Made by a program: the position numbers and the translations under genes. Source: Rhabdaerophilum sp. (GTDB lineage: Bacteria; Pseudomonadota; Alphaproteobacteria; Rhizobiales; Beijerinckiaceae). From it: a stretch of DNA of 64,000 bases. The notes below the pieces were generated by a model. That model worked only from the letters and a program-made list of their open reading frames with translations, was not told the origin of the DNA and searched no databases. Position 1 is the first letter of the stretch; each line of letters starts with the position of its first letter. The stretch is from NCBI GenBank assembly GCA_051654985.1, contig JBOFZC010000030.1, forward strand, positions 19,920 through 83,919, in the 5' to 3' direction. This document shows, piece after piece, positions 37,933 to 63,555 of this stretch.

Positions 37933-37938
37933 AATAGA

Positions 37939-43143: not shown

Positions 43144-43159
43144 CGGGCGACAGGTCCAA

Positions 43160-43348
43160 TCAGAGCGGGCGCAAAGGGCCGCATTCCGCGGCCGGAAGAA
43201 GCGCCGCAAGGGGCTCGGGCAAGATCGACATGACGAATGACGAGAGCGGCTGGGCATCACCGGGCTCACAGGGCGCCTTGAGTGGCCTGTGCCCACAGGC
43301 GCTGAGCAGAACCGCAAGGCCTATCACTTTAAAAAGCTTCCCGATCAT
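43160..43348 (-). CDS. virB7: Small lipoprotein (VirB7-like)
   Basis: Lipobox LSAC, second Cys in KAPC, ATGA overlap with the upstream gene. Confidence 0.7.
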   Translation of the reverse strand: MIGKLFKVIGLAVLLSACGHRPLKAPCEPGDAQPLSSFVMSILPEPLAALLPAAECGPLRPL

Positions 43349-44100
43349 CGCGCAGCACCATCTGGCGTATTGGTCGCGTTGAAAGGGCGATAGGTCATGG
43401 CATTGGCGGCGGCAGAAGCGGCAGCGAGACGGTCGAGATTGGCCTGATTGGTCGCGGTCACCGCTGTGTTCACGACACCGGTCAGTTCGTTCACGGTCTG
43501 CCCGGTTTGGATCTGCACTTGGGTGTTCTGGTCGATCGATCCTTTGAGATCGGGAGCCGAGCCGATCTGGTTTCCGCCCTGCATGAAAGCCGAGCTCCTT
43601 TGCTGAACGGCGCCCTGCGTCGCCGAGACGAGACCGGTGATGGTCGCCGCGACATTGACCGAGTTCTGGTAGGCCTGATCCGTCGGACGTGACGAACCAT
43701 TGATGAGGCCCGTGATCGAGCGGACGAGCTGCAGCCCGTTGATGAGGTTCGAGACGATTCCCTGGGCATCCGAACCCATCCCACCAAAAGCGAGCGTGCC
43801 GCCGGAGATCACGGAACCAAGGGAGGGCGCGCTGGCCATCGTGAACCCGCCGCCAAGAGCCATCTGGGCGAGCGACCCTTGCGCGACAGAGGAGCGATCG
43901 CCGGTGATCGCCTGCAAGGTCCGCTGTGTGTTCGTCAGGATCTCCCGGTCCGTCTCGAGGATCTGTCGCGTGGAGGAGGCGATCTCCTGCGCTTTGGCGA
44001 GATTGGCAGCATCATTCACAGGGACCTGCGCCAGGGCGGTTCCGCAACCAAGGCAAAGGAGGAGACCACCCAGGGCCGTGGAAATGCTCGAATGACGCAT
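43345..44100 (-). CDS. virB5: VirB5-like minor pilin, copy 1
   Basis: Signal peptide then QVPVND, DLKGSIDQN...Q..NEL helical region. Confidence 0.75.
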   Translation of the reverse strand: MRHSSISTALGGLLLCLGCGTALAQVPVNDAANLAKAQEIASSTRQILETDREILTNTQRTLQAITGDRSSVAQGSLAQMALGGGFTMASAPSLGSVISGGTLAFGGMGSDAQGIVSNLINGLQLVRSITGLINGSSRPTDQAYQNSVNVAATITGLVSATQGAVQQRSSAFMQGGNQIGSAPDLKGSIDQNTQVQIQTGQTVNELTGVVNTAVTATNQANLDRLAAASAAANAMTYRPFNATNTPDGAAR

Positions 44101-44110
44101 GGGAGTTCCT

Positions 44111-45034
44111 TCAGTTTTGACCGACAGCGCGCGCGCGGCTCGCAGCGAGTGCTTCAACGAGATCGGCTTCGGTGATCGTTCTGGTGTTGGGCTGCCTCGG
44201 TGCTGCAACCGGGGTGTCGAGCACGCGTCGGGAGGCAAATTCGAGATAGGTCAGGACATTGCCGTGGCTGTCGGTGTAGCGCCTGACGATGCAGGCGGGA
44301 TCAACCGGGGTGCCTGAGGGCGTCGTCGAACATTGGGAAGGGCGGCAGGGATCTGCATTCGTCCCGGAGCCGGTCATCCCTGCCGGGCAGGTTCGCCCTG
44401 GCAAAACAGGTGGTTGTGGCCCGACAAATACCCTCGCGCCTTGGCTGGAGTCACTCTGGTTCGCCAGATTGAGCGCATTCAGGGCCTGAACGAGGAGGTT
44501 TGCCGTGGCGATGGTCTGGTTCCAGCTCATCCCGTTCTGGACGCGGATTGAGGTGTTCTGGTCGAAGGCTTCCATGACGGTTTTCGTGGAGCCGACCTCA
44601 CCAGTGCGGGCTCGGTAGGCCCCTTGTGTTGCTTGAACCGTGCCTTGCGCCGCCTCGACGCCGGAGATGACCTTCCCGGTTTCTGATCCGAGTTGCTGTT
44701 CGCTGAGCGTGCCGCCCGTAGTACCGGGCTGTGGCGCTGCCGGCATGCCGGGCGTGTAACCCTGCACGGCGTTCGATCCCGTCGCGGGATTGGTCTGGCT
44801 CTCCGGATTCTTCACATTGCCACGGCCGCCTTTGGTCACTGCGCAGTTGATCCCCTCGCGTTTTCTTTTGTGATCGAGAAGGATCGTTTTCAGCTCGGTC
44901 TTGTGCCCGCTTTCCTGCGCTTTTCGCTCAAGGATCGCGGAATCGCGGACAGGCACATTCGCGTAAGCCGTGCCGGCGCCGATGAACATCCAGCCGACTA
45001 CGCCGAGGAAGGGGACAGAGCGAAGCTGCTTCAT
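44111..45034 (-). CDS. VirB5-like protein, copy 2, with Cys/Pro-rich tail
   Basis: Signal peptide then NVPVRD, TVMEAFDQNTSIRVQN. ATGA overlap with the virB4 stop. Confidence 0.7.
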   Translation of the reverse strand: MKQLRSVPFLGVVGWMFIGAGTAYANVPVRDSAILERKAQESGHKTELKTILLDHKRKREGINCAVTKGGRGNVKNPESQTNPATGSNAVQGYTPGMPAAPQPGTTGGTLSEQQLGSETGKVISGVEAAQGTVQATQGAYRARTGEVGSTKTVMEAFDQNTSIRVQNGMSWNQTIATANLLVQALNALNLANQSDSSQGARVFVGPQPPVLPGRTCPAGMTGSGTNADPCRPSQCSTTPSGTPVDPACIVRRYTDSHGNVLTYLEFASRRVLDTPVAAPRQPNTRTITEADLVEALAASRARAVGQN

Positions 45035-47460
45035 GCCGGGTTTCCTCCCGATGCTGAGGCGCGTCCCATGAATATAGGCAGCCAGATTGAGGGGTCGGTT
45101 CCGACCGTCCCCATCAGGAGTTCGAGCTCGGCGACGGTTTCCGTCCGGCCCGAGAGGACCTTGATGAGATCGCTCATGCCGGAAAGGTTGAGTTTGGCGA
45201 TGACACTGTCCTGCCCGTGCTTGATCAGGAAGGAGCGCTGCTCCGGTACGGAAGTCCGGATCCATTCGACCTCACGCGCCGAGAGCCTGAAGGCCTTCCG
45301 GTAGCTCTCGTCATCCGCCTTGGGGTTCGGGAAAAAGATATTGGTAGAGGTCTGTTCGATCAGGGTGTTGGCTGATTTCGAACGGACGATATCGGCTGCG
45401 GATTGAGTTCCAAACCCGATGATCCCGTTCTGCTTCCTGATCGTCTTGAGCTTGTCCTTGATGAAGGAAGCGAAGACCTCATCGTCGAGAAGCCGCCAGC
45501 CCTCGTCGAGGAAGATCATGACGGGATCGCCATTCAGCAGCTCGTTCGTCCGGTGGAAGATATACATCAGCGCAGCTGTGCGAATGACCGGGTCATCCAG
45601 CACCCGGGTCATGTCGAAGCCGTAGATTGAACCAAGCGAAAATTTGTCTGTCTCGTTATTGAAGAGCCAGCCGCGCTGATCCGGCTTCAGCCAGGTCTCG
45701 AGACGCCCGAGAAGATCGCCCTCGCTCGCGCGAATGCGACCGCGGAGGAGAGTGGCGAAGGCGGGAAGTGTCTTGCCTTCGACGGGGCCAGTCAGAACCG
45801 CAGCGATCGCGTTGCGGATCACCTGCTCTTCGGATGCTGACATCAGCCGATCATCGACCGGTTTTAACATGTAGGCAAAGAGCTGGAACAGGAACTCGCG
45901 GTTTTCGCCATTGTCCGGAAGCGCCAGCGGATTGAAGCCCGTGGGCTCGCCCGGTGAGAGTACTTCATATTGCCCGCCCATGGCGCGGATGAAGATTTCA
46001 GCGCCCCGATCCTTGTCGACAAAGAGGAGCTTCGGACGCGGCACAATCCGCTGCGCCTGAGCTGACAGAAACGACAGGAAGACTGTCTTTCCCGAACCTG
46101 AGGGCCCGACCACCGTGAAATTCCCGAGATCGCGGATATGGGCATTGAAATAATACGCCGTCTGGGAGCTCGTCTCGAAGACCGAGAGTGCGGGTCCCCA
46201 ATGGTTCCCCTTGGCTTGTCCCGAGGGGTAATTGTGGAGCGAAGCAAAGCCGGAGAAATTCTTCGAGGAAAGTGTGGCTTTACGCGCGATATAGGCGAAA
46301 TTCCCGGGGAGCTGCGCCCAGAAGGCCGGCTCGCAATTGAGATCCTCGCGCACCCAGATGACGGAGCGATCCGTAAGCGCTGCGCCAAGCGCGGTAATCG
46401 CGGCATTGACCTCGTGGAGATTGCGCCCGAGCGGCATCACCGAGAAATGGTGCTCGCCATAGATTGCTTCAGACGCGAGAAGCTCGTCCCTTGCGATCGC
46501 GAGATGGTCAGCGACGACGGATTCTGCTTCATCCGACATATCGACCTGGCGCGTCACGCGATCGATCTGTTTGGCGGCTTCAGGACGATCGATGATCGCA
46601 AAACTCTGGGTCAGGATAAACTCGTGCGGGACCTTCAGAAGGAGGTCCAGGGATCCCGGCCCGGAAAAGGCAGGGTATTCCCGGATCGAGAGCATCGCGC
46701 CGAAGCGCGTTTCGGCATCGGACGCTCCTCGGATTTCGATGGCATTGCGACCGAAGAAGATGCGCTTCTGGGAGAGCGCTTCATCGAGCGGCATGCGCGG
46801 CAGGGGCATGGGACGCGGCACACCGCCATTGACGAGCTGGAGCAGGAACTCGAGCGGCTCGGAATGCCAGATGCCGTCACGGGCTTCAACCGAAAGGCTT
46901 CGTGCGCCATAGGCACCGAGGGTTTCGCGAATGGCGGTCGTCACATCACTGAGTTCAGAGAGAGCTTCCGCTTCGTCCGCAGAATGGCCGCCAGCGGTCT
47001 TCTTGCCGAGAATGGCTGCAAGGAGACCTTCGAAATTGCCGGCCTGTCCCTGGAGTGGGCGGCGGAGAATCGTCAAGTAGATGTCGTTGACGAACATCCG
47101 GCGTTTCCCGAGCGCCTGATGGTAGCGACGGTCGAGCTCGGCACAGAAAGCGTTGTCAAAGGTCGAAGGGATGCCCGGTTCGACCTCCCGGCGGATGATG
47201 TGCTGGTAAAGTGCGAAACGGGAATTCCCGAGCATGCGCACGAGATCGTTACGCGCCATCATGCGTGCGTTGATCTCGCTCATATCCGCCGTCTCGAAAC
47301 AGTAACCCTCGAGCTTGAGCGTCGTCAGGAGGAGGCCCGTCTTAGTCCTGATGGTGCGATCATCGACATGACGGGCATAGGGGATATGGATCCCGAGCGG
47401 GCGCTCGCGACTGGCAGCCGTCCCAAAGGTCATTTCCGAGAGAAGTGCCCGCGCAACCAT
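45031..47460 (-). CDS. virB4: T4SS ATPase
   Basis: FWAQLPGN, GPSGSGKT, DKDRG, GFNPL, FLDEGW, RKQNG. Confidence 0.95.
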   Translation of the reverse strand: MVARALLSEMTFGTAASRERPLGIHIPYARHVDDRTIRTKTGLLLTTLKLEGYCFETADMSEINARMMARNDLVRMLGNSRFALYQHIIRREVEPGIPSTFDNAFCAELDRRYHQALGKRRMFVNDIYLTILRRPLQGQAGNFEGLLAAILGKKTAGGHSADEAEALSELSDVTTAIRETLGAYGARSLSVEARDGIWHSEPLEFLLQLVNGGVPRPMPLPRMPLDEALSQKRIFFGRNAIEIRGASDAETRFGAMLSIREYPAFSGPGSLDLLLKVPHEFILTQSFAIIDRPEAAKQIDRVTRQVDMSDEAESVVADHLAIARDELLASEAIYGEHHFSVMPLGRNLHEVNAAITALGAALTDRSVIWVREDLNCEPAFWAQLPGNFAYIARKATLSSKNFSGFASLHNYPSGQAKGNHWGPALSVFETSSQTAYYFNAHIRDLGNFTVVGPSGSGKTVFLSFLSAQAQRIVPRPKLLFVDKDRGAEIFIRAMGGQYEVLSPGEPTGFNPLALPDNGENREFLFQLFAYMLKPVDDRLMSASEEQVIRNAIAAVLTGPVEGKTLPAFATLLRGRIRASEGDLLGRLETWLKPDQRGWLFNNETDKFSLGSIYGFDMTRVLDDPVIRTAALMYIFHRTNELLNGDPVMIFLDEGWRLLDDEVFASFIKDKLKTIRKQNGIIGFGTQSAADIVRSKSANTLIEQTSTNIFFPNPKADDESYRKAFRLSAREVEWIRTSVPEQRSFLIKHGQDSVIAKLNLSGMSDLIKVLSGRTETVAELELLMGTVGTDPSIWLPIFMGRASASGGNPA

Positions 47461-47467
47461 CCCTGCC

Positions 47468-47764
47468 TCACACGGAATAGCTGTCCGCGCCCCAGAAGGC
47501 GCGAGAGCGGGGTGGGCATTTCGTGGAGCGAACGAAGAGAATCTCGAAGATCCTCTCATCGCGCAGGGTCATCACGAACCCGAAGAGATGGAGCGGGATC
47601 GCAACGAGCAGCATGGCCAAGTTGTGGCTCGCCAGAAAGATGACGGCGGTCGCGACGCCGTTCATCATAAAATACATGTAGGGAACGCCCATCAGCGTCG
47701 GCGCGCGCGTCAGAGCCCTGACGAGCGGGACGATCAGGGGCTTTTCGAGATCGTTCTCGGTCAT
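47468..47764 (-). CDS. virB3: T4SS protein
   Basis: PLVRALTRAPTLMGVPY, FWGADSY. Confidence 0.92.
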   Translation of the reverse strand: MTENDLEKPLIVPLVRALTRAPTLMGVPYMYFMMNGVATAVIFLASHNLAMLLVAIPLHLFGFVMTLRDERIFEILFVRSTKCPPRSRAFWGADSYSV

Positions 47765-52085: not shown

Positions 52086-52547
52086 ATGTCCCGCGCCACC
52101 ACCGCACACCGTGCTCCGCCGCCCAACCAGGCTGAAATTACGCTTGCCCGCTCCTCGGCTCAGCGCCTGGGTTCGCTTGTCCGCAGAAGCGAGCCCTTGC
52201 GTGTCCGTGTGATTGATCGCGGACAGGAGGCGCCGATCGAGCTTCCTGCCGTCGCCGTCGACCTCTTGCTGGATATCCTTGGCGCGATGGCTGCCGGCCA
52301 AGGCGTGACCATCATCCCTGAGAATGCCGAACTCACGACCGTGCAGGCTGCCGGGGTTCTCAATGTCTCGCGACCGTTTTTGATCAAGCTCCTTGAGGAT
52401 AATGCCATTCCGCACCGGAAAGTCGGGAAGCACCGCCGGGTCAGAATGGAAGACGTCATGGCTTATAAGGCGCGGATCGACCGTGACCGGGAAGCCGTGC
52501 TCGACGCTCTTGTCGCCGACGCTCAGGAGCAGGGCATGGGATACTGA
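52086..52547 (+). CDS. Excisionase-type (HTH_17) DNA-binding protein
   Basis: IELP..AVDLL..IL.AMAAGQGV, LTTVQAAGVLNVSRPFLIKLL...VGKHRRV. Confidence 0.92.
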   Translation: MSRATTAHRAPPPNQAEITLARSSAQRLGSLVRRSEPLRVRVIDRGQEAPIELPAVAVDLLLDILGAMAAGQGVTIIPENAELTTVQAAGVLNVSRPFLIKLLEDNAIPHRKVGKHRRVRMEDVMAYKARIDRDREAVLDALVADAQEQGMGY

Positions 52548-52553: not shown

Positions 52554-53123
52554 ATGACCTACACCGCGCTCCTCGACGCCAATGTGCTCTATCCCGCTGT
52601 CACGCGGGATATTCTCATGCGCCTTGCTGTCACCGACATCTACAAGGCGCGCTGGAGTAACGACATTCACCGGGAATGGATCGAAAATCTCATCGATAAT
52701 GAGCCAAAACGCGAGCGCGCCAAACTGGAGCGCACGCGTGAACTCATGGACCTCAATGTCCGGGATGCGCTGGTTACAGGATACGAGCCGCTCATTCCTG
52801 GGATTGTCGGCTTGCCCGACCCGGATGATCGGCATGTCCTTGCGGCCGCAATCGTCGGCCGCTGCGATGTGATCGTGACCGCGAACTTGCGAGATTTCCC
52901 GGAGGCAGCGATCGCACCTTATGGGATCGAGGCGATCCACCCCGATGAGTTCCTGGGCTCCCATCTCAGTCTTGCCCCGGGTCTCTTCTGTGGCTGCGTG
53001 AAGCGCATTCGGGCTCAGCTCAAGAACCCTCCCATGAGCGTCGAGGACTATCTCGGAAAGCTGGTCGCATGTGGATTGGTCGCGACCGCAAAGGCGCTCG
53101 AGCAATATGCCGAATTAATCTGA
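52554..53123 (+). CDS. PIN-domain protein
   Basis: LLDANVLYP, WSNDIHREW, LPDPDDRHVLAAA, IVTANLRDFP. Confidence 0.92.
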   Translation: MTYTALLDANVLYPAVTRDILMRLAVTDIYKARWSNDIHREWIENLIDNEPKRERAKLERTRELMDLNVRDALVTGYEPLIPGIVGLPDPDDRHVLAAAIVGRCDVIVTANLRDFPEAAIAPYGIEAIHPDEFLGSHLSLAPGLFCGCVKRIRAQLKNPPMSVEDYLGKLVACGLVATAKALEQYAELI

Positions 53124-53155: not shown

Positions 53156-53560
53156 CTAGTCCCGGCGGCGCGTCTTTGCCGATTGCCCCGTGGATTTCTT
53201 TTTGAACTCGACGCGCTGGCTTTCGAGTTGCGCGAGCGCCTCGACGCGTGCCCGACTGGAAGCCTTGATGGCCTCGAGATCAATGTCCCTGGCATCCAGC
53301 GCTTTCTTCACAACGCCATCGTTGAGCCCGAGGAGTTCCCAGACCGAAAGGCCAAGTCCCTTGGCAATGAGTTCGAGGGTATCGAGCGTCGGGTTGGCGT
53401 CGCCCTTGACGAGGAGGTAGTAGGTCCCCGGTGAAATCCCGACCTTCGCCAGAAAGCTTGCCAGATCCTCGTGGTCAGCCGCAAGCTGTTCGAGCCTGAT
53501 GCCGAGTACCGATGCCAATGTCTTTTCCGCGGTTCTGCCGCGCCCCGCTTTGGGAGCCAT
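53156..53560 (-). CDS. XRE-family HTH regulator
   Basis: FLAKVGISPGTYYLLVKGDANPTLDTLELIAKGLGL. Confidence 0.8.
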   Translation of the reverse strand: MAPKAGRGRTAEKTLASVLGIRLEQLAADHEDLASFLAKVGISPGTYYLLVKGDANPTLDTLELIAKGLGLSVWELLGLNDGVVKKALDARDIDLEAIKASSRARVEALAQLESQRVEFKKKSTGQSAKTRRRD

Positions 53561-53694
53561 CTGCCTGCCCGATCCATGATCCAATGATTGGCTGCAGCGT
53601 GCATACATTTTCTACGATACGCAATAGATCGCACAACCAGAGACCTTCCGCTGGATGACTGTTCCCATTGGGTCGGGTGGAAGGGAATTCCGTT

Positions 53695-54125: not shown

Positions 54126-54173
54126 GACGGTTTGAGAGGGGAAGAGAGAGGTTCTGCCCCGACCGTCGTGGAG
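54126..54173 (+). promoter_or_regulatory. Purine-rich hairpin leader of the ParB-like gene
   Basis: GACGGT(54126-31)/ACCGTC(54162-67) outer stem, GGGG/CCCC inner stem, GGAG RBS immediately 3'. Confidence 0.5.
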
Positions 54174-54182
54174 ATGACGGAC

Positions 54183-56324
54183 ATGACCCAGACGGATTCC
54201 AGCACTGTTACTCACCGGCCCATAGTTGGTGCCCTCGCCGCCCCTCGCGAGGTTCCCCTTTCCCAGCTCGTCTCTTCTGCTGCCAATGTCCGGAAGGTTC
54301 GAGCCTTCATGAGCATTGACGATCTCGCGGAGGACATCGCGCGTCGGGGGCTCCTGCAGTCGCTCTCTGTCCGTCCCGTGATAAATGATGCTGGCGTCGA
54401 GACGGGGCAGTTCGCTGTTCAAGCCGGAGGGCGACGCCTCGCCGCCCTTCAGAAGCTTCAAGCAGAAGGCCGCATCAGCCCTGATCATCCGATCCCCTGC
54501 CTCGTCAAATCCACCGGCATCGAGGTCGAGGATTCGCTTGCTGAGAATGTGATGCGCTCCGGTCTTCATCCGCTCGACCAGTTCCGGGCCTTCAAGGCTC
54601 TGGCCGACGATGAAGGGCTCTCGGTCGATGAGATCGCGGCACGGTTTTTCGTCTCGCCGCAGGTCGTTCGCCAACGCCTGAAGCTCGCCTCTGCAAGCCT
54701 GACCCTGCTTGCGGCCTATGCCGAGGACGAGATGACGCTCGATCAACTCATGGCGTTCTGCGTGACGGCGGAGCATGCCCGCCAGGAAGGGGTCTGGGAG
54801 CAGATCCGGCATGGCTACAACAAGGAGCCCTACCTGATCCGGCGCCTTCTCATGGAAGGTGCGGTCAAGGGCAATGATCGGCGCGTCCTTTTCGTGGGAG
54901 CTGCCTCCTACGAAGCCGCTGGCGGTGTGATCCTGCGCGATCTCTTCTCGGAGGATGGCGGGGGCTGGTTTCAGGCTGGTGCGCTGCTCGACCGTCTCGC
55001 CATGGAGAAGCTGGCCGAGGAAGCCAAGGGCATCGCCACCGAGGGCTGGAAATGGGTCAAAACGGCCCTCACCTTCCCCTATGGCCATCTCAACGGCCTG
55101 ACACGGCTCTCATCGACACCGGTGCCGGTCTCGGCTGATGAGCATGCGCGTTATGACGCCACCCTTGCCGAGTACAATGCGCTGTCAGAGGAATTCGAGG
55201 GCGTCGAGGAACTTCCCGAGGAGATCGACCAGCGCATGGGCGAGCTCGAAGACATCCTCGCGAGGGTCGATGAACGCCCCGAGATCTTCAATCCAGAGGA
55301 AATCGCCAATGCCGGGGTTTTCGTCAGCATCGAGCACGATGGTCGTCTGCGCGTCGAAGCTGGCTATGTCTGCCCAGAAGATCGCGTTGCAATTGCACCT
55401 CGTCAGTCGTCGAGCAGTCCGACCACAGGCGATGATTCTGCTTTGTCCTGCCAGACTGGAGGCGTTGGACCGAAAACGTCAGAGGATGCCGATGACGTCG
55501 AAACGGAGACCACGGCCCGCCTCTCCGACCGCCTCGTCGCCGAACTCACGGCCTATCGGACGCTCGCCTTGCGGGAAGCCATGGCTGATGATCCCGATAC
55601 CGCGCTCCTCACCTTGACGCATGCCCTAGTGCTCAAGAGCTTCTACCGCTTCGCTGGTTCGGAGACCTGCCTCGAGCTCGATATCCGGTCCTCCTCGTTG
55701 GAGGCGTATGCACCTGACCTCGGCGAAAGCGATGTCGCCAATCGGATGAGCGCCCGCCAGGCGCGCTGGGCTGGGATGCTGCCGAAAAATCCCGGTGATC
55801 TCTGGGATGCGCTTGTCGCCTTTGATGCGGATTCGCTCGCAGCCCTCTTCGCGTGGTGCGTCTCGACAGGCGTCAATGCACTGCAACTCCCGCACATACG
55901 CCGCACCCGTGAACTCGATCATGCCGACCGGCTCGCGGATCATGTCGATCTCGATATGCGCCGCCATTGGTCTGCGACCTCGAAAAGCTTCTTCGGGAAG
56001 GTCACGAAATCCCAGATCCTCGTGACGGTGCGCGAGGTGAAGGGCGAGGCGGCAGCCCAAATGATCGATCACCTCAAGAAGTCTGACATGGCAACTGAGG
56101 CAGAGCGCCTTGTCGCCGGCGCAAACTGGTTGCCGGCTCCCTTGCGATCGATCCATGAGATGGGCTTGCACGCGCTTGTCGCCCCATCTGCAACGACGGT
56201 CGAAGCTCCCACACAGCCCGCGAGCGAAGGGAGTGAGGATGCCGATTCAGAGGCTGTTACGCTCCCAGCCTTCCTGACTGAGGGCCTGGCAACGGCGTCA
56301 ACTTATCCCATCGCCGCCGAATAG
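54183..56324 (+). CDS. Large ParB/Spo0J-like protein of conjugative elements
   Basis: NVRKV, IARRGLLQSL.V, AGGRRL.AL, SLAEN..R..LHPLDQF, HTH V.QRLKL, C-terminal LPAFL...IAAE. Confidence 0.92.
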   Translation: MTQTDSSTVTHRPIVGALAAPREVPLSQLVSSAANVRKVRAFMSIDDLAEDIARRGLLQSLSVRPVINDAGVETGQFAVQAGGRRLAALQKLQAEGRISPDHPIPCLVKSTGIEVEDSLAENVMRSGLHPLDQFRAFKALADDEGLSVDEIAARFFVSPQVVRQRLKLASASLTLLAAYAEDEMTLDQLMAFCVTAEHARQEGVWEQIRHGYNKEPYLIRRLLMEGAVKGNDRRVLFVGAASYEAAGGVILRDLFSEDGGGWFQAGALLDRLAMEKLAEEAKGIATEGWKWVKTALTFPYGHLNGLTRLSSTPVPVSADEHARYDATLAEYNALSEEFEGVEELPEEIDQRMGELEDILARVDERPEIFNPEEIANAGVFVSIEHDGRLRVEAGYVCPEDRVAIAPRQSSSSPTTGDDSALSCQTGGVGPKTSEDADDVETETTARLSDRLVAELTAYRTLALREAMADDPDTALLTLTHALVLKSFYRFAGSETCLELDIRSSSLEAYAPDLGESDVANRMSARQARWAGMLPKNPGDLWDALVAFDADSLAALFAWCVSTGVNALQLPHIRRTRELDHADRLADHVDLDMRRHWSATSKSFFGKVTKSQILVTVREVKGEAAAQMIDHLKKSDMATEAERLVAGANWLPAPLRSIHEMGLHALVAPSATTVEAPTQPASEGSEDADSEAVTLPAFLTEGLATASTYPIAAE

Positions 56325-57897: not shown

Positions 57898-57950
57898 ATT
57901 GTCAGAAAAAACATTAGAGATATTGACATTGTCAGTTTTTGTCTCCATGT
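57898..57950 (+). promoter_or_regulatory. AT-rich promoter with TGACA/TGTCA repeats
   Basis: TTGACA at 57922-27 inside the palindrome TGACA-T-TGTCA. ATTGTCAG occurs twice. Confidence 0.55.
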
Positions 57951-57970
57951 TTTGACGCATGGAGGGTGCC

Positions 57971-58549
57971 ATGACCGATGGTCCGTTCAAAAATTTAAAA
58001 CTCGGGAACTGCTGGAAGCGGTTGGTCGACGCCGTGCAAAACGACGCGGCATCGTCCGAGGAATGTCGCGCCGTCGCGTCAGATGCGCTAGCCCGCCACC
58101 TCGTTACGAAAGAGCATATCAAGGCAATTAACGAGCTCGACGCACATCTTAGTAAGGGTCAGCTAGAGCTCGATCCGGTGGGGTCGATCGACGCCATCTT
58201 CGACCGCTGCGGGAAGACGCCGTTCCTCGACGCGCTTCAGAAAGAACTGGCGTATCGGACGGCCAATGACACGCCGCTCAGCGATGCCGTTGCACCCGCG
58301 CTCGACGCCGCCATCGCTTTGCAGATCGGCGAAACGCAGAGCCGGTTCCATGAGGAATGCATCCGCGCATACGAAGACGGTGAGATCAGCCGGAGTGCAT
58401 CAGACAACGCGCGTAGAAAAGTGGATGTCGCCTTCGACGCCCTAGACTACGGGAAGGTCCGCACCGCACTGATTGAAGGTCGAAAGGACGCCTTCGAGAG
58501 CGACTTCGGCAAGAGCGACGGTGTCGATGATGGGATGGTCCGATTGTGA
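57971..58549 (+). CDS. Unknown helical protein (N-terminus MTDGP)
   Basis: GGAGG RBS before ATG at 57971. Stop overlaps the next GTG (GTGA). Acidic DxxDDG C-terminus. Confidence 0.85.
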   Translation: MTDGPFKNLKLGNCWKRLVDAVQNDAASSEECRAVASDALARHLVTKEHIKAINELDAHLSKGQLELDPVGSIDAIFDRCGKTPFLDALQKELAYRTANDTPLSDAVAPALDAAIALQIGETQSRFHEECIRAYEDGEISRSASDNARRKVDVAFDALDYGKVRTALIEGRKDAFESDFGKSDGVDDGMVRL

Positions 58550-59937
58550 ATACCCAAGTGACTAGTCCCGAGCACTATGGCCTGAGATTGTGCGTCGTCG
58601 AGGCAGGACGACGGCAGGTGCGATCCCAGCATCGATCAACGATCATCGCTGAAATCGGCCGGGAGATCACCTTTGTCCCGGATGCGCTGGATACCTACAC
58701 CTATGACGGATGGAAACCGATCCACCACGATCTTCTGGTCATAAGCGCAGCGGTTGAATATTCGGATCGCCGCACGGCAAGGCGGATCAGCCAGTGGGCG
58801 CGCGATTTTGACATCACGGTGCCCGTTGTCGAATGGGCTACGTGGCAACAACCCGAGGTGCAGGCGAGCCTTCGTGCTGCGTTGCGGCATCTGACCGGCG
58901 ACGAGTGGCACTTCACCTTTGTTCCCTGGCAGGGAGCAAGCGTTCTCGGCGCGCGGCAGCGGTTGCTCCCGTTTGGGACGGAAAAAAGCTTCGTCATCGC
59001 CTACAGCGACGGACTGGATTCGCGCTGTGTCTCCAAGGTGTCTGGGATAGGGCGCGATGCCGTTTGCGTCCGCGTTACCAAACATCGTCATGCCCATAAG
59101 GCGGGTGATGAGCCGTTCGACCAGATCCCCTTCCGTGTCGATGTCCCCTCCGCCCGGGAAAGCAGTGTGCGATCGCGCGGATTCAAGTTTGCCGCCGTGA
59201 CGGCTATTGCCGCGCATCTAACGGGACTGACTAGAATTGTCGTTCCTGAGAGCGGTCAGGGTGCACTGGGTCCGGTGCTACTGCCCTTGCACAACGTCTA
59301 TGCCGACTATCGCAATCATCCGACCTTTTTTCGCAAAATGGAGCGGTTCATCAGGGCGTTGCTCGGCCATCAAGTCCGCTATGAGCAACCGCGCCTCTGG
59401 AACACGAAAGGCGAGACGATTTCTGCCTTTCGGCTTGCAACGAATAAGGCAGTCGAGGAACTCTTCGATACTCGCTCGTGCTGGCAGCAGCGCTGGAACG
59501 CGAAGGTGGACGGCAAGCTGCGGCAGTGCGGCCTTTGCGCCGCTTGTCTGCTTCGCCGGATGAGTATGCACGCGGCAAGGATAGACGAGCCGAAAGACAC
59601 CTATGTCATCGCCGATCTGACGGTTCCGTCGTTTCAGGATGCGCTGCCGGGCAGGAAAAAGGTCCGACTCAGCCGGTCGATGGCCGAGTATGGCAGCGTC
59701 GGCGCGCGGCACCTCCAGCAATTGGCTGACTTGGCGGACCGGTCCGACGGAGATCTGAAGGTTCACGCATTCGAGATCGCGCGCGCGATGGGGGAGCCAC
59801 CGGACGACGTGTTGAAGAAACTCAGGACCATGTTGCTGACGCACGCGAAGGAATGGCGCGGCTTCATGGCCGCTCAAGGAGAAAAAAGCTTCCTCAGAAG
59901 CTGGACGAAGGGAGGGCGTCATGGCCGATCTGAATGA
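58546..59937 (+). CDS. QueC-like (QatC-type) PP-loop enzyme
   Basis: N-terminal DLL...AVEYSDR..W.RDF.ITVPV...LTGDEWHFTF domain, YSDGLDS PP-loop, RSRGF, PESG, TKGE, TRSCW, CGLCAACLLRR zinc site. Confidence 0.88.
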   Translation: MNTQVTSPEHYGLRLCVVEAGRRQVRSQHRSTIIAEIGREITFVPDALDTYTYDGWKPIHHDLLVISAAVEYSDRRTARRISQWARDFDITVPVVEWATWQQPEVQASLRAALRHLTGDEWHFTFVPWQGASVLGARQRLLPFGTEKSFVIAYSDGLDSRCVSKVSGIGRDAVCVRVTKHRHAHKAGDEPFDQIPFRVDVPSARESSVRSRGFKFAAVTAIAAHLTGLTRIVVPESGQGALGPVLLPLHNVYADYRNHPTFFRKMERFIRALLGHQVRYEQPRLWNTKGETISAFRLATNKAVEELFDTRSCWQQRWNAKVDGKLRQCGLCAACLLRRMSMHAARIDEPKDTYVIADLTVPSFQDALPGRKKVRLSRSMAEYGSVGARHLQQLADLADRSDGDLKVHAFEIARAMGEPPDDVLKKLRTMLLTHAKEWRGFMAAQGEKSFLRSWTKGGRHGRSE

Positions 59938-61111
59938 GTTGAGCGCACAGGAAATAGGTCGGCGCCTGCGTCTGGCTCGAGAGAATGCGGGCATTCGCCA
60001 GGATGAGGCGGCCGACGTAATTGGCATGTCACGCCCGACACTGGTCTCCATCGAAAAGGGCACGCGGCGCGTTCGCATACAGGAGCTACAATTACTAGCG
60101 CGGCACTACGGGGTCTCCGTCAACGCGCTTCTGCGTCGAGAAGCCGTTCATACCGATCTGGTGCCGCGGTTTCGCAAGATGCGGGAGACGGAAGACGACC
60201 ATACGCTGGAAGCCATCGAGCTTCTCAATGACCTGGTGAAGGCTGAAGTGGAACTCGAAAACGTCCTCGGCGTCGAGCGGAGGCGCCACTATCCGCCCGA
60301 GAAAGGGATCAACGACGGCGACGCTATAGAGCTAGCAGAGAAGCATGCGCAGGAGCTGCGTGATTGGCTCGGCCTGGGTGGAGGGCCGATTGCCGACATC
60401 TTTGCCGTCATCGAACTCGATCTCGGCGTTCGCCTGTACCAGCGACGCCTGTCCTCGACGTCAAAAGTCGCAGGCTTGTTCGCGTATGACGAGGTCGTCG
60501 GCGCATGCATTCTTCTCAACGCGAATCATCCGCTGGAACGGCGCATCCAGTCTGCTGCCCATGAAATCGGGCATTTCGTCGGAACGCGCCGAGTGCCCGA
60601 AGTTCTGGAAGATGACGAGCAGTTCTTCTCGCGGGACGAGCGGTATGCGAATGCTTTCGGCCGCGCCTTCGTGACGCCTCGAAAGAGCTTCTCGGAGTGC
60701 TTCAAACAGCTGACGGCTGGCGCGGACATGCTTACCCGTCGGCATGTCATTCTGCTGGCCCACCAGTACAACATCTCCCGCGAGGCATGCGTCCGTCGAC
60801 TCGAAGAGCTGGAGCTTTTAAAGAAGGGCACGTGGGAATGGCTCAAGACGAAGGGCGGGATCAAGGACCATCACGCGCGTGAAGTACTAGGAGACGCCGC
60901 CGTTCGTCTCGACATGGCCAAGACAGATGCCAACCGACCAATCTCCCACAGAATGAGCCTCATGGCGCATGCGGCGTGGAAGCGTAGCATCATGTCGGAA
61001 GGGCAGCTGGCGGAGCTACTGAGGATGCGGCGCGTTGAGGTGCGCGAGCTGATCGACCAGATCGAGCTTGAGGAAAACGTGACGGATGACCTTCTCAAGC
61101 TCCCTGGCTGA
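59921..61111 (+). CDS. XRE-HTH fused to ImmA/IrrE Zn metallopeptidase
   Basis: IGRRLRLARE...QDEAA...RPTLVSIEKG HTH, AAHEIGH (HExxH), ERYANAF. Start overlaps the QueC-like gene. Confidence 0.93.
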   Translation: MADLNELSAQEIGRRLRLARENAGIRQDEAADVIGMSRPTLVSIEKGTRRVRIQELQLLARHYGVSVNALLRREAVHTDLVPRFRKMRETEDDHTLEAIELLNDLVKAEVELENVLGVERRRHYPPEKGINDGDAIELAEKHAQELRDWLGLGGGPIADIFAVIELDLGVRLYQRRLSSTSKVAGLFAYDEVVGACILLNANHPLERRIQSAAHEIGHFVGTRRVPEVLEDDEQFFSRDERYANAFGRAFVTPRKSFSECFKQLTAGADMLTRRHVILLAHQYNISREACVRRLEELELLKKGTWEWLKTKGGIKDHHAREVLGDAAVRLDMAKTDANRPISHRMSLMAHAAWKRSIMSEGQLAELLRMRRVEVRELIDQIELEENVTDDLLKLPG

Positions 61112-61748
61112 TGACCACAGGCCGCTGGTACTCGACACGAGCGTTCTGGTGAACCTGCACGCCTGCACATACGGTGAGCGGGTGCTGTCGGCAATTCAAA
61201 ATGAAATCGTAGTTGCTGACATCGTCGCCGGCGAATTGGAGCACGAGACGAGCCGGAGGAACGGGGAACTCAGCTTCCTCCATGACATGATTAGACGCGG
61301 CAAGGTCACCATCATCGGCATGACCGAAGCGGAGGGCAACCTGTTTGCGAGGCTTTCCGGTGGCCCCTCCTCTCTGGATGACGGCGAAGCGGCCACGGTT
61401 GCCATCGCCACCCATCGCGGCTTCCGCACCGTCATCGATGAACGAAAGGGCCGCGCCCGCGCCGTGGCGATGATGAACGGCGACGCGCCCGCCTGGTCCC
61501 TTGATCTGCTACGACACATCAGCGTCATAAAGAGCCTCGGCGAGAAACTGGCCGCAGACGTCGTCTATCTGGCACTTCGATACGGGCGGATGCGCATCCC
61601 ATCGGAGTGCGGCGATGATGTCGTGGCTCTGATCGGACGCGACCGCGCCCTTGAATGCACCTGCCTGCCGAACTTCAAAAGCCTGTTGCAGGAGGCGCGG
61701 TCGAGCAATGAAATGGAAGCGGCACCGAGTTCTCGGAATCGGCGATAA
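61086..61748 (+). CDS. PIN-domain nuclease
   Basis: LVLDTSVLVNL, V..EL, LDDGEAATVAIA, IDERKGR, SLDLL. Start overlaps the peptidase gene. Confidence 0.88.
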   Translation: MTFSSSLADDHRPLVLDTSVLVNLHACTYGERVLSAIQNEIVVADIVAGELEHETSRRNGELSFLHDMIRRGKVTIIGMTEAEGNLFARLSGGPSSLDDGEAATVAIATHRGFRTVIDERKGRARAVAMMNGDAPAWSLDLLRHISVIKSLGEKLAADVVYLALRYGRMRIPSECGDDVVALIGRDRALECTCLPNFKSLLQEARSSNEMEAAPSSRNRR

Positions 61749-61821: not shown

Positions 61822-63555
61822 TTGACTCGTATACGCGCGGTTGAGATCAAGCACTTCAGAGGGATAAAGGATCTCGTCTGGTATCCATCTCCCGGCATTA
61901 ACTGCTTGATAGGTCCTGGCGACAGTGGGAAATCATCAATTCTCGATGCCATCGACTTCTGTTTGGGTGCGCGTCGAAACATCCAGTTCACTGACGCGGA
62001 CTTCCATCAGCTACACGTAGAGACGCCGGTCACGATCACAGTGACGCTGGGCGAACTTGAGGATGGACTCAAGAACATCGACACCTACGGAATGTTCGTC
62101 CGTGGTTTCGACCCAGCGACCAAGAAAATCGAGGATGAACCAGAGAAAGACGCCGAAACGGTCTTAAGCCTGCGGCTGACGGTCGCCAGCGATCTAGAGC
62201 CGAGCTGGACGCTGGTGTCGGAGAGGGCGGAAGCGCAAGGCCTTGGCCGAAATCTCAGTTGGGGAGACCGCATCAGGCTGGCGCCGACGAGGATCGGTGC
62301 GCTGGCCGATTACCATTTAGGTTGGCGGCGCGGCTCGGTTCTGAACCGTGTATCGGAAGAGCGTGCGGATACTTCGGCCGCACTTGCGAAGGCAGCAAGG
62401 GATGCCCGGGCGGCCTTCGGCGAAGAGGCCCAAGGGCAACTTGGTGATACGCTGATGATCGTAGCGGCAACCGCCAAGGAACTAGGCATCCCGATAGGTG
62501 AGAATATCAAAGCGATGCTGGACACCCACTCCGTATCGTTCAGCGGCGGGACGATTTCGCTGCATGATGAGGGGGGTATACCGCTTAGGGGATTGGGCAT
62601 CGGGTCTACCCGACTGCTGATCGCTGGGCTTCAGCGAAAGGCGGCCTCTCAGTCGACAGTGATCCTTATCGACGAGCTGGAACATGGGCTCGAACCGCAC
62701 CGCATTATCCGCCTTCTAGGGTCACTCGGTGCCAAGGAAAAGACGCCGCCACTCCAAGTTTTCATGACGACACACTCACCCGTCGCGTTGCGCGAGCTCT
62801 CCGGCAGCCAGTTGTTCGTGGCACGACGGTCTGGTGACCGCCAAGACGTATTGAGCGTCGGCACCGCCGACGGTGTCCAGAGCACGATCCGGCTCTATCC
62901 AGATGCTTTCCTCGCGCCTTCGGTGATCGTCTGCGAAGGCGCAAGCGAGGTCGGTCTTGTGCGAGGGCTGGATCAATACAGGACAGCGCAAGGTAAGGAA
63001 GCCATCACAGCGCGGGGAGTCGCGTTAGTCGATTGCGGTGGCGGCGATTCTGACCGGCCTTTCGAAAGAGGAGGAGCTTTCCAAGGCCTTGGATACAAGG
63101 TTGCCGTCGTTCGCGACGATGACAAGAAGCCGACACCTGATATTGAAAGCAAATTTATCGCCGAAGGCGGCGAAGTAATTGCTTGGCGTGACGGCCGCGC
63201 ATTGGAAGACGAGCTCTTCTTAAGCCTGTCTGAAGATGGGGTCAGAAAACTTGTGGCTCGTGCGATCGATCTTCATGGCCACGATCTGGTGAACGAGCAC
63301 ATCAAATCAGCCAGCAAGAATGCAAAGGACCTTGGGGCGATCCTGACCGAGACAGAAGCAGGAGAAGTCACCACGGAAAGTAGAGCGGCGCTTGGCACAG
63401 CGGCGCGCACAAAACGCGCCGGGTGGTTCAAGTCGGTCACTTGGATGGAGGACGTGGCGCGAGACATTATTGGCCCGGACTTGCCAAAAGCGGATGCCAG
63501 CTTCCGCGACCTTGTTGAGAGCATCTTCGCGTGGAGCGCTAATGCCGATGCCTGA
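61822..63555 (+). CDS. OLD-family ATPase-TOPRIM nuclease (GajA-like)
   Basis: IKHFRGI, GPGDSGKS, GLGIGS, IDELEHGLEPH, TTHSP, VCEGASE, RDDD. GGAGG RBS before TTG at 61822. Confidence 0.92.
   Translation: MTRIRAVEIKHFRGIKDLVWYPSPGINCLIGPGDSGKSSILDAIDFCLGARRNIQFTDADFHQLHVETPVTITVTLGELEDGLKNIDTYGMFVRGFDPATKKIEDEPEKDAETVLSLRLTVASDLEPSWTLVSERAEAQGLGRNLSWGDRIRLAPTRIGALADYHLGWRRGSVLNRVSEERADTSAALAKAARDARAAFGEEAQGQLGDTLMIVAATAKELGIPIGENIKAMLDTHSVSFSGGTISLHDEGGIPLRGLGIGSTRLLIAGLQRKAASQSTVILIDELEHGLEPHRIIRLLGSLGAKEKTPPLQVFMTTHSPVALRELSGSQLFVARRSGDRQDVLSVGTADGVQSTIRLYPDAFLAPSVIVCEGASEVGLVRGLDQYRTAQGKEAITARGVALVDCGGGDSDRPFERGGAFQGLGYKVAVVRDDDKKPTPDIESKFIAEGGEVIAWRDGRALEDELFLSLSEDGVRKLVARAIDLHGHDLVNEHIKSASKNAKDLGAILTETEAGEVTTESRAALGTAARTKRAGWFKSVTWMEDVARDIIGPDLPKADASFRDLVESIFAWSANADA

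Follow-up and report, generated by a model that had tools for sequence, protein, structure and literature searches.

Organization of the locus

The window, which is the whole stretch of 64,000 nucleotides from Rhabdaerophilum sp. that was analysed, carries a four-gene operon at 57971-61748 in which each gene overlaps the next. It encodes a 192-aa helical protein (ORF1), a QatC-like PP-loop enzyme, an XRE-M78 peptidase protein and, as the last gene, a PIN protein. An earlier note had singled out the last two as a pair, and both open reading frames lie exactly where it placed them (59921-61111, plus strand, 396 aa; 61086-61748, plus strand, 220 aa). Its description of the pair as "embedded in the operon" is correct, since these are genes 3 and 4 of the overlapping four-gene operon. 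A start of ORF1 at 57959 was considered and rejected; the true start is the ATG at 57971. The features are the following.

57900..57905, plus strand: operator-like box 1, TGTCAG, 71 nt before the ORF1 ATG, read from the sequence
57923..57935, plus strand: TTGACATTGTCAG, a -35 hexamer at 57923-57928 joined to box 2 at 57930-57935
57946..57951, plus strand: -10-like hexamer CATGTT, 17 nt past the -35 element, read from the sequence
57961-57965, plus strand: Shine-Dalgarno sequence GGAGG ahead of ORF1
57971..58549, plus strand: ORF1, 192 aa, all-helical, N-terminus MTDGPF-N--L---WK
58546..59937, plus strand: QatC-like PP-loop ATP-pyrophosphatase (QueC superfamily), 463 aa
59005-59022, plus strand: PP-loop S154-x-G-L-D-S159 of the QatC-like enzyme, invariant
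59479-59547, plus strand: Zn Cys cluster C312...C328-G-x-C-x-x-C334 of the QatC-like enzyme, invariant
59921..61111, plus strand: XRE HTH - M78 peptidase - UPF0175-like protein, 396 aa
59951..60145, plus strand: XRE-type HTH domain, aa 11-75 (Pfam HTH_3, HTH_31)
60458..60802, plus strand: Peptidase_M78 (ImmA/IrrE) domain, aa 180-294 (Pfam), with HEIGH at 60560-60574
60953..61075, plus strand: C-terminal UPF0175-like domain, aa 345-385, MSLMAHAAWKR-IMSEGQLAELL...
61086..61748, plus strand: PIN-domain nuclease, 220 aa, predicted toxin/effector
61125-61475, plus strand: VapC-like core of the PIN protein, aa 14-130
aa 138-212 of the PIN protein, plus strand: helical C-terminal extension
61134-61136 (D17), 61233-61235 (E50), 61380-61388 (D99/E101) and 61437-61439 (D118), plus strand: invariant acidic residues of the PIN protein

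The region upstream of ORF1 is conserved together with the genes. Two TGTCAG boxes at -71 and -41 are present in 70 of 81 distinct upstream regions, and in 68 of these 70 the spacing between them is exactly 30 nt. Box 2 overlaps the -35 element, and the resulting motif TTGAC[AT]nTGTCA was detected in 71 of the 81 regions; in the window it occurs once, against 0.23 occurrences expected by chance. Within TTGACATTGTCAG, TGACA-T-TGTCA forms a palindrome. A consensus promoter scanner made no call at the -10-like hexamer of the window (57946..57951); the aligned upstream regions show TATGTT or TATTTT at the equivalent position, and also GGAGG. Because two TGTCAG boxes stand at a constant 30-nt spacing in a conserved promoter, autorepression of the operon is proposed, and the sequence pattern suggests it.

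Conservation and genomic context of the cassette

The comparison of 92 distinct loci for the four-gene arrangement revealed that the peptidase-PIN pair closes one fixed operon in nearly all of the approximately 90 distinct loci from other genomes. Gene order and overlaps are unchanged in 67 loci retrieved by the QatC-like protein and in about 77 retrieved by the PIN protein, and the arrangement is also kept in subfamilies in which identity of the QatC-like protein falls to 34-40%. All catalytic motifs of the cassette, namely the PP-loop and Zn cluster, HExxH and the PIN acidic set, are intact.

Members of the cassette family are common among Alphaproteobacteria, and ICEs and plasmids carry them. 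The window itself is a conjugative element with a T4SS and metal-resistance genes, and many other loci adjoin ICE or plasmid genes (DUF736, ArdC-like, KlcB, ParB-like, Trb). Some loci are chromosomal and flanked by housekeeping genes; the contexts of the cassette are unrelated and include non-mobile ones. The flanks vary from locus to locus, and the genes beside the cassette are very often other known defence systems: BREX-like, Gabija (on either strand), RES/TIR/Bub, AbiE, HipA, Lit/DUF3800 and Shedu. Gabija also adjoins the cassette in the window, where it is a neighbour only and no part of the cassette. The cassette sequence of the window was found in metagenomic DNA runs only.

The QatC-like enzyme and ORF1

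The second gene had been taken for a "QueC module" that might tune the pair. Identity as a queuosine enzyme was rejected, as the protein is QatC-like: it scores 117.7 bits with NCBIfam QatC (cut-off 280) and 3e-31 with PADLOC QatC, and the profile of its family matches the QatC structures 9vlk (3e-31) and 9zee (1e-25), while Pfam QueC gives 20.5 bits, under the cut-off of 22. Clearly related to QatC, it appears to have the extended QueC fold of that enzyme, along with the PP-loop, the Zn cluster and the motifs RxRxxxF, ExG, P(x)4TK and CGxCxxC..RR. The T-R-T-T-H-P segment of QatC (the T-x-T substrate segment), in contrast, is replaced by Y-R-N-[H/Y/F]-P, which follows the invariant Y252 and D254. 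Since the enzyme is QatC-like and Qat defence has QatBC as its core unit (PMC13279940), a pair that alone protects against some phages, the enzyme is as probable a core of the cassette as a tuner, if not more so.

ORF1 is proposed to be a QatB-like substrate or partner of this enzyme. Like QatB, it is encoded directly upstream of the enzyme gene and overlaps it, and its body is all-helical, its N-terminal tail is free and conserved, and the G-P-x5-L-x3-W spacing is present. In the AlphaFold2 model (pLDDT 85) the protein is all-alpha with residues 1-12 unstructured. Residues M1, D3, G4, P5 and F6 are invariant among homologues, with T or S as residue 2, and D3-G4 is steadier than residue 2 across subfamilies. 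QatB, however, starts with M-G-T-S and ORF1 with M-T/S-D-G-P-F, so that the glycine motif of QatB is missing. No family, PDB, Foldseek or NCBIfam match was obtained for ORF1, and hhalign against five QatB sequences gave a probability of 0.2%, with no detectable similarity in sequence or fold; the G-P-x5-L-x3-W spacing is all that the sequences have in common.

The repressor-peptidase and the PIN protein

Neither protein of the pair is a chance open reading frame, since the closest homologues are found at E=1e-234 for the peptidase protein and at E=1e-104 for the PIN protein. The intact HExxH peptidase fused to an XRE HTH, as described in the earlier note, was recovered by Pfam with HTH_3 (4e-13, aa 16-68) and Peptidase_M78 (6e-15, aa 180-294); 63 distinct homologues preserve H214-E215-x-x-H218 and, downstream of it, an ERYAN motif. 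The protein matches 16 PADLOC RmrA profiles, the best at 3e-22, covering aa 13-326. Further PADLOC matches are capP (2e-12), PDC-M69B (2e-12) and capH (3e-7). Among the nearest solved relatives of the HTH are DdrO (6rnz) and ImmR (7t8i), which are M78 substrates. No sign of a cysteine-switch loop was seen in the 396-aa protein, and Pfam gave no GAF match; beyond the M78 domain the protein continues for only about 100 residues, which are UPF0175-like.

Of 22 diverse C-terminal fragments, 13 have UPF0175 as their highest-ranking Pfam family, with a best E of 9.6e-6. The highest score seen among related fragments, 26.8 bits (E 4e-6), stays under the gathering cut-off of 27.9, and the fragment of the window reaches 15.1 bits. 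An S-E-G-Q motif is invariant in the domain. UPF0175 has been reported solely beside PIN proteins of COG2405/DUF3368 (PMC5499597), and the domain therefore argues for a toxin-antitoxin relationship. We propose that it is a PIN-binding antitoxin module, and that the 396-aa protein unites autorepressor, PIN antitoxin and peptidase in one polypeptide. The protein is the most conserved of the four (62-93% identity across loci), at about 75% identity against about 55% for the PIN protein. Antitoxin-toxin pairs typically show the reverse, which implies that additional constraints act here.

The PIN gene overlaps the peptidase gene by 26 nt in the window and by 23-26 nt across loci. The acidic residues DTS, DDGE and DE, which had been read as a retained active site, are indeed invariant in 60 distinct PIN sequences (D17-T18-S19, D98-D99-G100-E101 and D118-E119), as is E50. 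Pfam PIN matches the window protein weakly (E=0.011), and PF01850 is matched by 24 of 24 relatives, again weakly, with a best E of 4e-6. Precomputed Pfam annotation assigns PF11848 (DUF3368) to the window protein and all homologues; this label was not reproduced by hmmscan with a local Pfam, which returned PF01850 and PIN_4 alone. In genome annotation the homologues are usually labelled "DNA-binding protein". The PADLOC scan of the PIN protein yielded PDC-S70 profiles only (1e-8) and no RmrT. Its AlphaFold2 model (pLDDT 89.5) matches VapC toxins in the PDB (5x3t_B, TM 0.72) and the COG2405 representative 2mdt (TM 0.73), and the top 26 Foldseek matches are all PIN-domain proteins, mostly VapC toxins. 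From the modelled VapC fold and the invariant acidic set, the protein is predicted to be catalytically complete. Outside the core, the N-terminal 13 aa and the helices of aa 138-212, with an invariant G-R-M-R motif, are conserved.

Natural deletion variants

Locus L148 keeps just residues 341-396 of the peptidase protein, together with an intact PIN protein, and suggests that the minimal antitoxin consists of the last ~55 residues. In L146 the peptidase gene is absent and the PIN protein has lost the D17 segment. Six loci (L063, L086, L102, L103, L135 and L150) have a decayed QatC-like gene and a complete peptidase gene; five of them retain a complete PIN protein, and in L135 the match covers residues 21-201 only. 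Pair-only loci are decay products with QatC-like remnants, and decay affects the QatC-like gene more often than the pair. The reverse pattern, a decayed pair beside a kept QatC-like gene, was absent among the variants examined. In this handful of loci, some of them MAGs, the PIN protein appears to remain whole wherever the peptidase protein still has its C-terminal domain, a pattern that points to a toxin-antitoxin relation of the two.

Proposed mechanism and alternatives

The reading we put forward, with about an even chance of being right, is that the pair supplies the regulator/antitoxin and the effector, and thereby one half, of a Qat-related defence cassette of four genes, in which an autorepressor/antitoxin-peptidase holds the PIN protein and is coupled to a QatBC-like protein-modification core. 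The XRE domain would bind both TGTCAG boxes and repress the operon, and the UPF0175-like domain, acting like a type II antitoxin, would bind the PIN protein and hold the nuclease inactive. When the cell is infected or its DNA damaged, the M78 peptidase contained in the 396-aa protein might cut that protein in cis or in trans, which would free the PIN protein and derepress the operon; the freed PIN protein would then degrade RNA (or DNA) and arrest the cell. Upstream, the PP-loop enzyme may spend ATP on modifying the invariant N-terminal tail of the 192-aa protein, and the QatB-QatC-like pair could serve as infection-sensing input to the peptidase or as a second, independent defence arm. The earlier note had suggested that the pair, an antitoxin and a toxin, could be the sensor and effector arm. 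Gene architecture, the RmrA profile matches, the UPF0175-like domain and the natural deletions speak for a toxin-antitoxin pair, but the pair is not free-standing. The activation by ssDNA or DNA damage suggested there rests on analogy only: CapP and IrrE form their ssDNA groove with a GAF domain, which is absent here, and the ssDNA trigger is therefore not simply transferable to the 396-aa protein.

A purely transcriptional switch appears rather unlikely. Here the XRE-M78 protein would be a damage-responsive repressor of fused CapH+CapP or ImmR+ImmA type, confined to controlling expression of the operon, and the PIN protein would be a latent effector under the QatBC-like pair. In this scenario XRE-M78 does not neutralise the PIN protein, and the arrangement is likened to QatB contacting the QatD nuclease. 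The capP and capH profile matches, the conserved operator boxes and the resemblance of the HTH to DdrO and ImmR all fit, as does the binding of QatB to both QatC and QatD (PMC13639016). The very high conservation of the protein is also easier to reconcile with a DNA-plus-enzyme constraint than with a simple antitoxin. The protein, however, has no GAF domain, and the switch leaves the conserved extra C-terminal domain unexplained, along with its retention beside an intact PIN protein in L148 and the outliving of the QatC-like gene by the pair.

That the pair is an addiction or maintenance module, which stabilises an ICE or plasmid without a role in phage defence and next to unrelated upstream genes, we consider improbable. 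The conjugative nature of the window, the ICE and plasmid genes at many loci and the persistence of the pair where upstream genes decay are in favour of it. However, overlaps couple the four genes, which stay together even between widely diverged loci, their neighbours are very often known defence systems, QatC relatives of known role act in phage defence, and some loci lie in chromosomes between housekeeping genes.

Only a slim chance is given to a protease-activated nuclease, that is, a PIN proenzyme blocked, for example, by its helical C-terminal extension or the 13-aa leader and activated by cleavage through a triggered M78 peptidase, on the model of protease-effector modules described of late. 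The conserved non-core segments of the PIN protein would suit a zymogen, and defence systems repeatedly recruit protease-nuclease pairs (PMC12799240, PMC12642450). The modules described, though, combine trypsin-like or other proteases with MBL or other effectors, not M78 with PIN; a zymogen needs no retained C-terminal domain of the peptidase protein, yet L148 keeps one; and gene order and overlap are of the antitoxin-toxin type.

Of similarly low probability is a peptidase-gated protein-nucleobase conjugation, in which M78 trims ORF1, the QatC-like enzyme conjugates Gly4 and the modified protein triggers PIN release. Removal of M-T/S-D would expose Gly4 as a counterpart of the N-terminal glycine that acts as acceptor in QatB and in type IV CBASS CD-NTases; a carboxylate, possibly 7-deazaguanine, would be joined to the new N-terminus, and the product would signal the peptidase to destroy its own antitoxin/repressor half. 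The steadiness of D3-G4 relative to residue 2 is compatible with this and no proof of it.

An ImmR/ImmA-like master regulator of excision or transfer of the host element, with the PIN protein as bystander, is very improbable: ImmA/ImmR do control ICEBs1 and prophages and the HTH is similar to ImmR, but the sole conserved operator found is in the cassette's own promoter, with the motif once in the window, and the cassette occurs in unrelated contexts, non-mobile ones included.

The cassette may become useful for the study of Qat-type reactions. What QatC-type enzymes attach to their partner, and how the phage is blocked as a result, are stated as open questions in three structure papers of 2026. 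The cassette swaps the poorly understood QatA and QatD for a putative toxin of the PIN type, with growth arrest and RNA cleavage as outputs, and a repressor-peptidase, with reporter derepression and self-cleavage as outputs; all of these are simple and assayable, and the QatBC-type reaction could therefore gain a clean genetic readout. Moreover, the cassette would be the first case of the long-predicted HTH-M78-PIN three-component toxin-antitoxin system wired to a protein-modification module. The family escapes current annotation, with the QueC-like protein under the Pfam and NCBIfam cut-offs and the PIN protein hidden behind its "DNA-binding" label.

Comparison with known systems

The pair had been called RosmerTA-like. 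RosmerTA is a two-gene anti-phage system of an RmrT toxin and an RmrA HTH-ImmA antitoxin (Millman 2022 preprint; PMC10440598), and the RmrA-type HTH + ImmA antitoxin candidate and the defence-island setting are common to both. In contrast, the RmrA profiles stop at aa 326 and leave the C-terminal domain uncovered, the PIN protein matches no RmrT profile, and the pair belongs to a four-gene operon in nearly all loci instead of forming a self-contained two-gene unit. As RmrT families are diverse, the missing RmrT match only weakens membership. A closer precedent is the three-component toxin-antitoxin system of HTH, DUF955/COG2856 (M78) and a PIN of COG2405/DUF3368, a computational prediction (Makarova 2009, PMC2701414; Matelska 2017, PMC5499597). 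Shared features are an HTH-M78 fusion gene that directly precedes a PIN gene on the same strand, the DUF3368 label that precomputed annotation gives to the PIN, and the UPF0175 link; in our case, however, the HTH-peptidase itself carries the UPF0175-like module at its C-terminus, and the pair is tied to QatB-like and QatC-like genes.

VapBC systems likewise have the VapC PIN fold with four acidic residues, an upstream neutraliser gene in an overlapping frame and, as is likely here, autoregulation from a promoter operator. The proposed neutraliser in the cassette, however, is not a small labile protein but a multidomain enzyme-repressor of 396 aa, and its conservation exceeds that of the toxin. 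CapH/CapP, IrrE/DdrO and ImmA/ImmR also place an M78 peptidase and an XRE repressor inside, or at the start of, an immune or mobile-element operon, and by analogy the same logic, in which cleavage leads to derepression, would be expected; here HTH and peptidase are one polypeptide with an extra antitoxin-like domain.

With QatABCD (PMC13279940, PMC13376578, PMC13639016) the cassette has in common a four-gene operon ending in a nuclease. QatA (KAP NTPase) and QatD (TatD) are absent from the window and from every related locus examined, and the XRE-M78 protein and the PIN protein stand in for them. We found no paper that describes the architecture of a QatBC-like pair with XRE-M78 and PIN, and the four-gene cassette is apparently previously undescribed. 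It is composed of known kinds of parts in a new combination: a four-gene Qat-like cassette that ends in XRE-M78 and PIN.

The cassette and its distribution

The earlier note had proposed an XRE-ImmA antitoxin and a PIN toxin as a pair. This peptidase-PIN pair is not a free-standing unit; it is part of a four-gene cassette with overlapping open reading frames, of which it comprises the last two:

57959/57971-58549, forward strand, ORF1 (helical protein, 192 aa)
58546-59937, forward strand, QatC-like enzyme (463 aa)
59921-61111, forward strand, peptidase protein (396 aa)
61086-61748, forward strand, PIN (VapC-fold nuclease, 220 aa)

We show here the anatomy of this cassette and its co-inheritance. 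The identical row of four genes, coding for proteins of ~191, 460, 396 and 210 aa, was present between unrelated flanks at the three loci of PIN homologues that were looked up. When one genome per GTDB species was scanned, the QatC-like protein as query recovered 67 loci and PIN recovered 80, which amount to 92 distinct cassette loci after de-duplication. Gene order and overlaps are unchanged in essentially all complete loci (tblastn), and the layout is kept in plasmid relatives with only 34-40% identity of the QatC-like protein and in one metagenomic relative with 36%. The majority of hosts are Alphaproteobacteria; Paraburkholderia, Hydrocarboniphaga, Azospira, Geobacter, Bryobacterales and Opitutales are also represented. 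Measured against the window copies across loci, identity is highest for the peptidase protein (62-93%), followed by the QatC-like enzyme (47-86%), PIN (41-76%) and ORF1 (29-74%). Many QatC-like and ORF1 genes seemed to be interrupted by stops, which turned out to be natural stop codons, located two residues earlier than those of the window. Carriage by phages was considered and rejected, as the peptidase protein found no close relative in IMG/VR.

Genomic context

The window represents a conjugative element; it comes from a metagenome of drinking water, and its sequence is present only in metagenomic DNA runs. The following features surround the cassette:

8387-47559, conjugative region, with copper/metal-resistance cargo at 8-35 kb (RND pump, two P-type ATPases, multicopper oxidase)
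36280-47559 (36-47.5 kb), reverse strand, T4SS genes VirD4/TraG, TrbI and VirB4/TrbE
52086-52547 and 52554-53123, forward strand, a separate VapBC-like pair (HTH_17 protein, then PIN_3 protein, 6 nt gap)
53156-53608, reverse strand, XRE HTH_3 protein
54132-56324, forward strand, protein of 730 aa, weakly matching ParB_N and typical of ICE/plasmid backbones
56849-57202, forward strand, Gly-rich 117-aa protein with signal-peptide-like N-terminus, just 5' of the cassette promoter
61823-63555, GajA, directly 3' of the cassette (PADLOC 1e-238; likely start TTG 61823 behind GGAGG, rather than 61807)
63548 (ATG) to 64000 and past the window end, GajB-like UvrD helicase (Walker A APAGCGKT)

Gabija was considered as a component of the operon and rejected: it is a neighbour, because GajA adjoins only few other loci, on either strand. 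The neighbours of the cassette are often other defence systems, comprising BREX-like genes, Gabija, RES/TIR/Bub, AbiE, HipA, Lit and DUF3800, and Shedu.

The QatC-like enzyme and ORF1

By its sequence, the 463-aa enzyme is classified as a distant relative of QatC. It scores 117.7 bits with the NCBIfam QatC model (cut-off 280) and 3e-31 with that of PADLOC, and the family profile matches the QatC crystal structures 9vlk (3e-31) and 9zee (1e-25). Neither the PP-loop S154-x-G-L-D-S159 nor the Cys cluster varies in the family, and all of the motifs described for the QatC type, RxRxxxF, ExG, P(x)4TK and CGxCxxC..RR (PMC13329287), were found. Since its Pfam QueC score of 20.5 lies slightly below the cut-off of 22, the family would be missed by the survey based on PF06508. 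A difference from QatC concerns the T-R-T-T-H-P segment (L-S-T-R-T-T-H-P), two threonines of which are reported as essential in the QatC literature. Both are missing from the QatC-like family, where the segment is replaced by Y-R-N-[H/Y/F]-P following an invariant Y252 and D254:

59299-59322, Y252-x-D254-Y-R-N-[H/Y/F]-P, residues 252-259 of the QatC-like enzyme, invariant

With this substrate segment replaced, what the enzyme activates cannot be inferred. The Y-x-D two residues upstream is reminiscent of the nucleobase-binding pair of QueC/Cap9.

[quoted passage not shown] ORF1 resembles QatB in gene position, helical body and a free conserved tail. Its true start is ATG 57971, in agreement with gene callers (192 aa), and M-[T/S]-D-G-P-F-[K/R]-N follows GGAGG in every homologue compared. 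The model is all-helical (pLDDT 85) with residues 1-12 free, and the spacing G-P-x5-L-x3-W is common to QatB (MGTSxxxxGPxxxxPLxPSW) and ORF1 (MTDGPFKNLKLGNCW). However, the N-terminus of ORF1 is not glycine, and homology to QatB was rejected by an hhalign probability of 0.2% against five QatB sequences from plasmid qatABCD loci. Pfam, NCBIfam, PADLOC and PHROGs contain no family for ORF1, and neither a profile search of PDB sequences nor Foldseek with the AlphaFold2 model gave a match. The likeness would therefore be one of position and N-terminal tail, by analogy only, and ORF1 is not demonstrably a QatB.

Across distant ORF1 subfamilies (MTDGPF, MSDGPH, (V)RDGIW), D3-G4 is less variable than residue 2, as judged from these N-termini:

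57971-58015, the window
4396-4440, cassette locus L151
4405-4449, cassette locus L152
6360-6404, cassette locus L067

Therefore, the acceptor in ORF1 may be other than the residue that is bared when methionine is removed. Conservation extends to the C-terminal tail G-V-D-E-G-P, yet this tail is predicted to be disordered.

The peptidase protein and PIN

The earlier note was right in every detail that it had read from the sequence of the pair, from the HExxH and XRE motifs and the gene overlap to the acidic residues DTS, DDGE and DE. In the peptidase protein, an XRE HTH (Pfam HTH_3, 4e-13, aa 16-68) is followed by a Peptidase_M78/ImmA-IrrE domain (6e-15, aa 180-294), whose H214-E215-x-x-H218 and downstream ERYAN motif are kept in 63 distinct homologues. 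A further conserved domain, marked by an invariant S-E-G-Q, occupies the last ~55 residues. UPF0175 is its only recurrent Pfam match, obtained for 13 of 22 diverse fragments (best E 9.6e-6); related C-terminal fragments reach 26.8 bits, and every match lies below the gathering score of 27.9. UPF0175 was described to occur exclusively beside PINs of COG2405/DUF3368 (Matelska et al., PMC5499597).

Small stand-alone homologues of the C-terminal domain were rejected as independent antitoxins, as the database proteins P0318, P0324 and P0353 are frameshift artefacts of long-read contigs with 1-3x coverage. At three such metagenome loci (L159, L160, L161), frameshifts split the peptidase gene and PIN into 321+73, 344+52 and 342+62 aa. 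The pieces figure as small 'stand-alone' entries in protein databases, a trap when free UPF0175-like genes are counted.

For PIN, the sequence match is weak in the window protein (E=0.011); PF01850 is matched by all 24 relatives scanned (best E 4e-6). A sequence search of the PDB gave no match, so a comparison of folds was needed. The AlphaFold2 model is confident (pLDDT 89.5). Its 26 best Foldseek matches among PDB entries are PIN-domain proteins without exception, VapC toxins for the most part, led by 5x3t_B (TM 0.72) and 2mdt, the COG2405 representative (TM 0.73). The acidic set D17, E50, D99/E101 and D118 is invariant in alignments of 24 and 38 sequences. A precomputed Pfam label, DUF3368, is attached to PIN and all homologues, but was not reproduced by our own hmmscan, and PIN has no PHROGs family. 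The leader of PIN (aa 1-13, 61086-61124; M1, S5 and L7 invariant) overlaps the part of the peptidase gene that codes for an acidic tail (61086-61111), and may be conserved because the stretch is read in two frames, rather than for its function.

Toxin-antitoxin evidence and decayed loci

The gene of the candidate neutraliser comes first and overlaps the PIN gene by 23-26 nt, an arrangement of type II toxin-antitoxin systems. The extra C-terminal domain of the peptidase protein, with its sub-threshold UPF0175 matches, and deletions found in nature likewise speak for a role as antitoxin of PIN. In locus L148, on a 580-kb MAG contig, unrelated genes replace everything upstream of residue ~341 of the peptidase protein. 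What remains (5857-6648), a minimal variant formed in nature, is a 52-codon open reading frame for the C-terminal domain, which begins 11 nt past the stop of a TOPRIM-like, unrelated gene; it overlaps an intact PIN gene with all catalytic residues. L146 has no peptidase gene, and its PIN lacks the first ~45 residues including D17. At six loci (L063, L086, L102, L103, L135, L150) the QatC-like gene is cut short or has all but disappeared, and the peptidase gene is complete; PIN is complete in five of these, and in L135 matches residues 21-201 only. The reverse was not found at any locus. This asymmetric decay, with few loci behind it, is what an addictive toxin-antitoxin pair would predict. The reading of L150 as an ancestral state, with peptidase and PIN on their own, was rejected: KSFLRSWIKG, from the 3' end of a QatC-like gene, can still be read immediately before the pair, which marks the locus as a decayed cassette.

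Promoter

A shared promoter was detected across 81 distinct upstream regions, with TGTCAG at -71 and -41 from the ATG. Both boxes are present in 70 of the 81 regions, spaced by exactly 30 nt in 68 of the 70. Box 2 abuts the -35 element as TTGACAnTGTCAG, forming the palindrome TGACAnTGTCA. In the window they are located as follows:

57900-57905 and 57930-57935, TGTCAG boxes (the 13-mer of -35 and box 2 occurs once in the window)

A promoter/terminator scanner found nothing beyond shuffle background and missed this conserved promoter. The closest solved relatives of the HTH domain include DdrO and ImmR, both repressors that are cleaved by M78 peptidases. The XRE domain would be the factor that binds the boxes, in keeping with autoregulation of the operon.

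Proposed mechanism and rival explanations

The best-supported reading is a scheme of four steps, each functional step of which we infer. The XRE domain of the peptidase protein would repress the operon, and its C-terminal domain would keep PIN inactive. Upon a trigger, the M78 peptidase would inactivate the peptidase protein, which would release PIN and lift the repression of the operon. The QatBC-like pair would modify the N-terminal tail of ORF1, either to provide the sensing input or to act in parallel as an arm of its own. Weighed against this scheme are the sub-threshold UPF0175 matches, the status of ORF1 with regard to QatB, the absence of a GAF domain from the peptidase protein, owing to which the ssDNA mechanism of CapP/IrrE cannot be assumed, and the stronger conservation of the antitoxin candidate than of the toxin candidate.

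A purely transcriptional switch like CapH/CapP is one rival. Another takes PIN as a proenzyme activated by the protease (compare PMC12799240 and PMC12642450). A third is a plain addiction module of the mobile element. Finally, the pair might be an ImmR/ImmA-like regulator of the element.

The interpretation given in the earlier note is thus right in part. Under the four-step scheme, its sensor and effector arm would persist as regulator and effector arm, bound into a fixed four-gene cassette.

Comparison with known systems

The peptidase-PIN pair matches a three-component HTH-DUF955-PIN toxin-antitoxin system known from computational prediction. As for the RosmerTA-like nature proposed before, the pair is TA-like and RosmerTA antitoxin profiles match the peptidase protein, but two traits of Rosmer are absent, namely a toxin recognised as RmrT and a system of two genes only. 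No paper was found that ties a QueC-family enzyme to an M78 peptidase or PIN, in a literature coverage that is incomplete and leaves the absence unproven. More interesting than the pair itself is that it is always coupled, in a fixed manner, to a QatBC-like module. A QatBC-like core is common to QatABCD and the cassette; on sequence criteria, however, the cassette is not QatABCD, having no QatA, QatD or QatB signature and an enzyme below the QatC cut-off. It is a widespread, unannotated variant among known kinds of defence.
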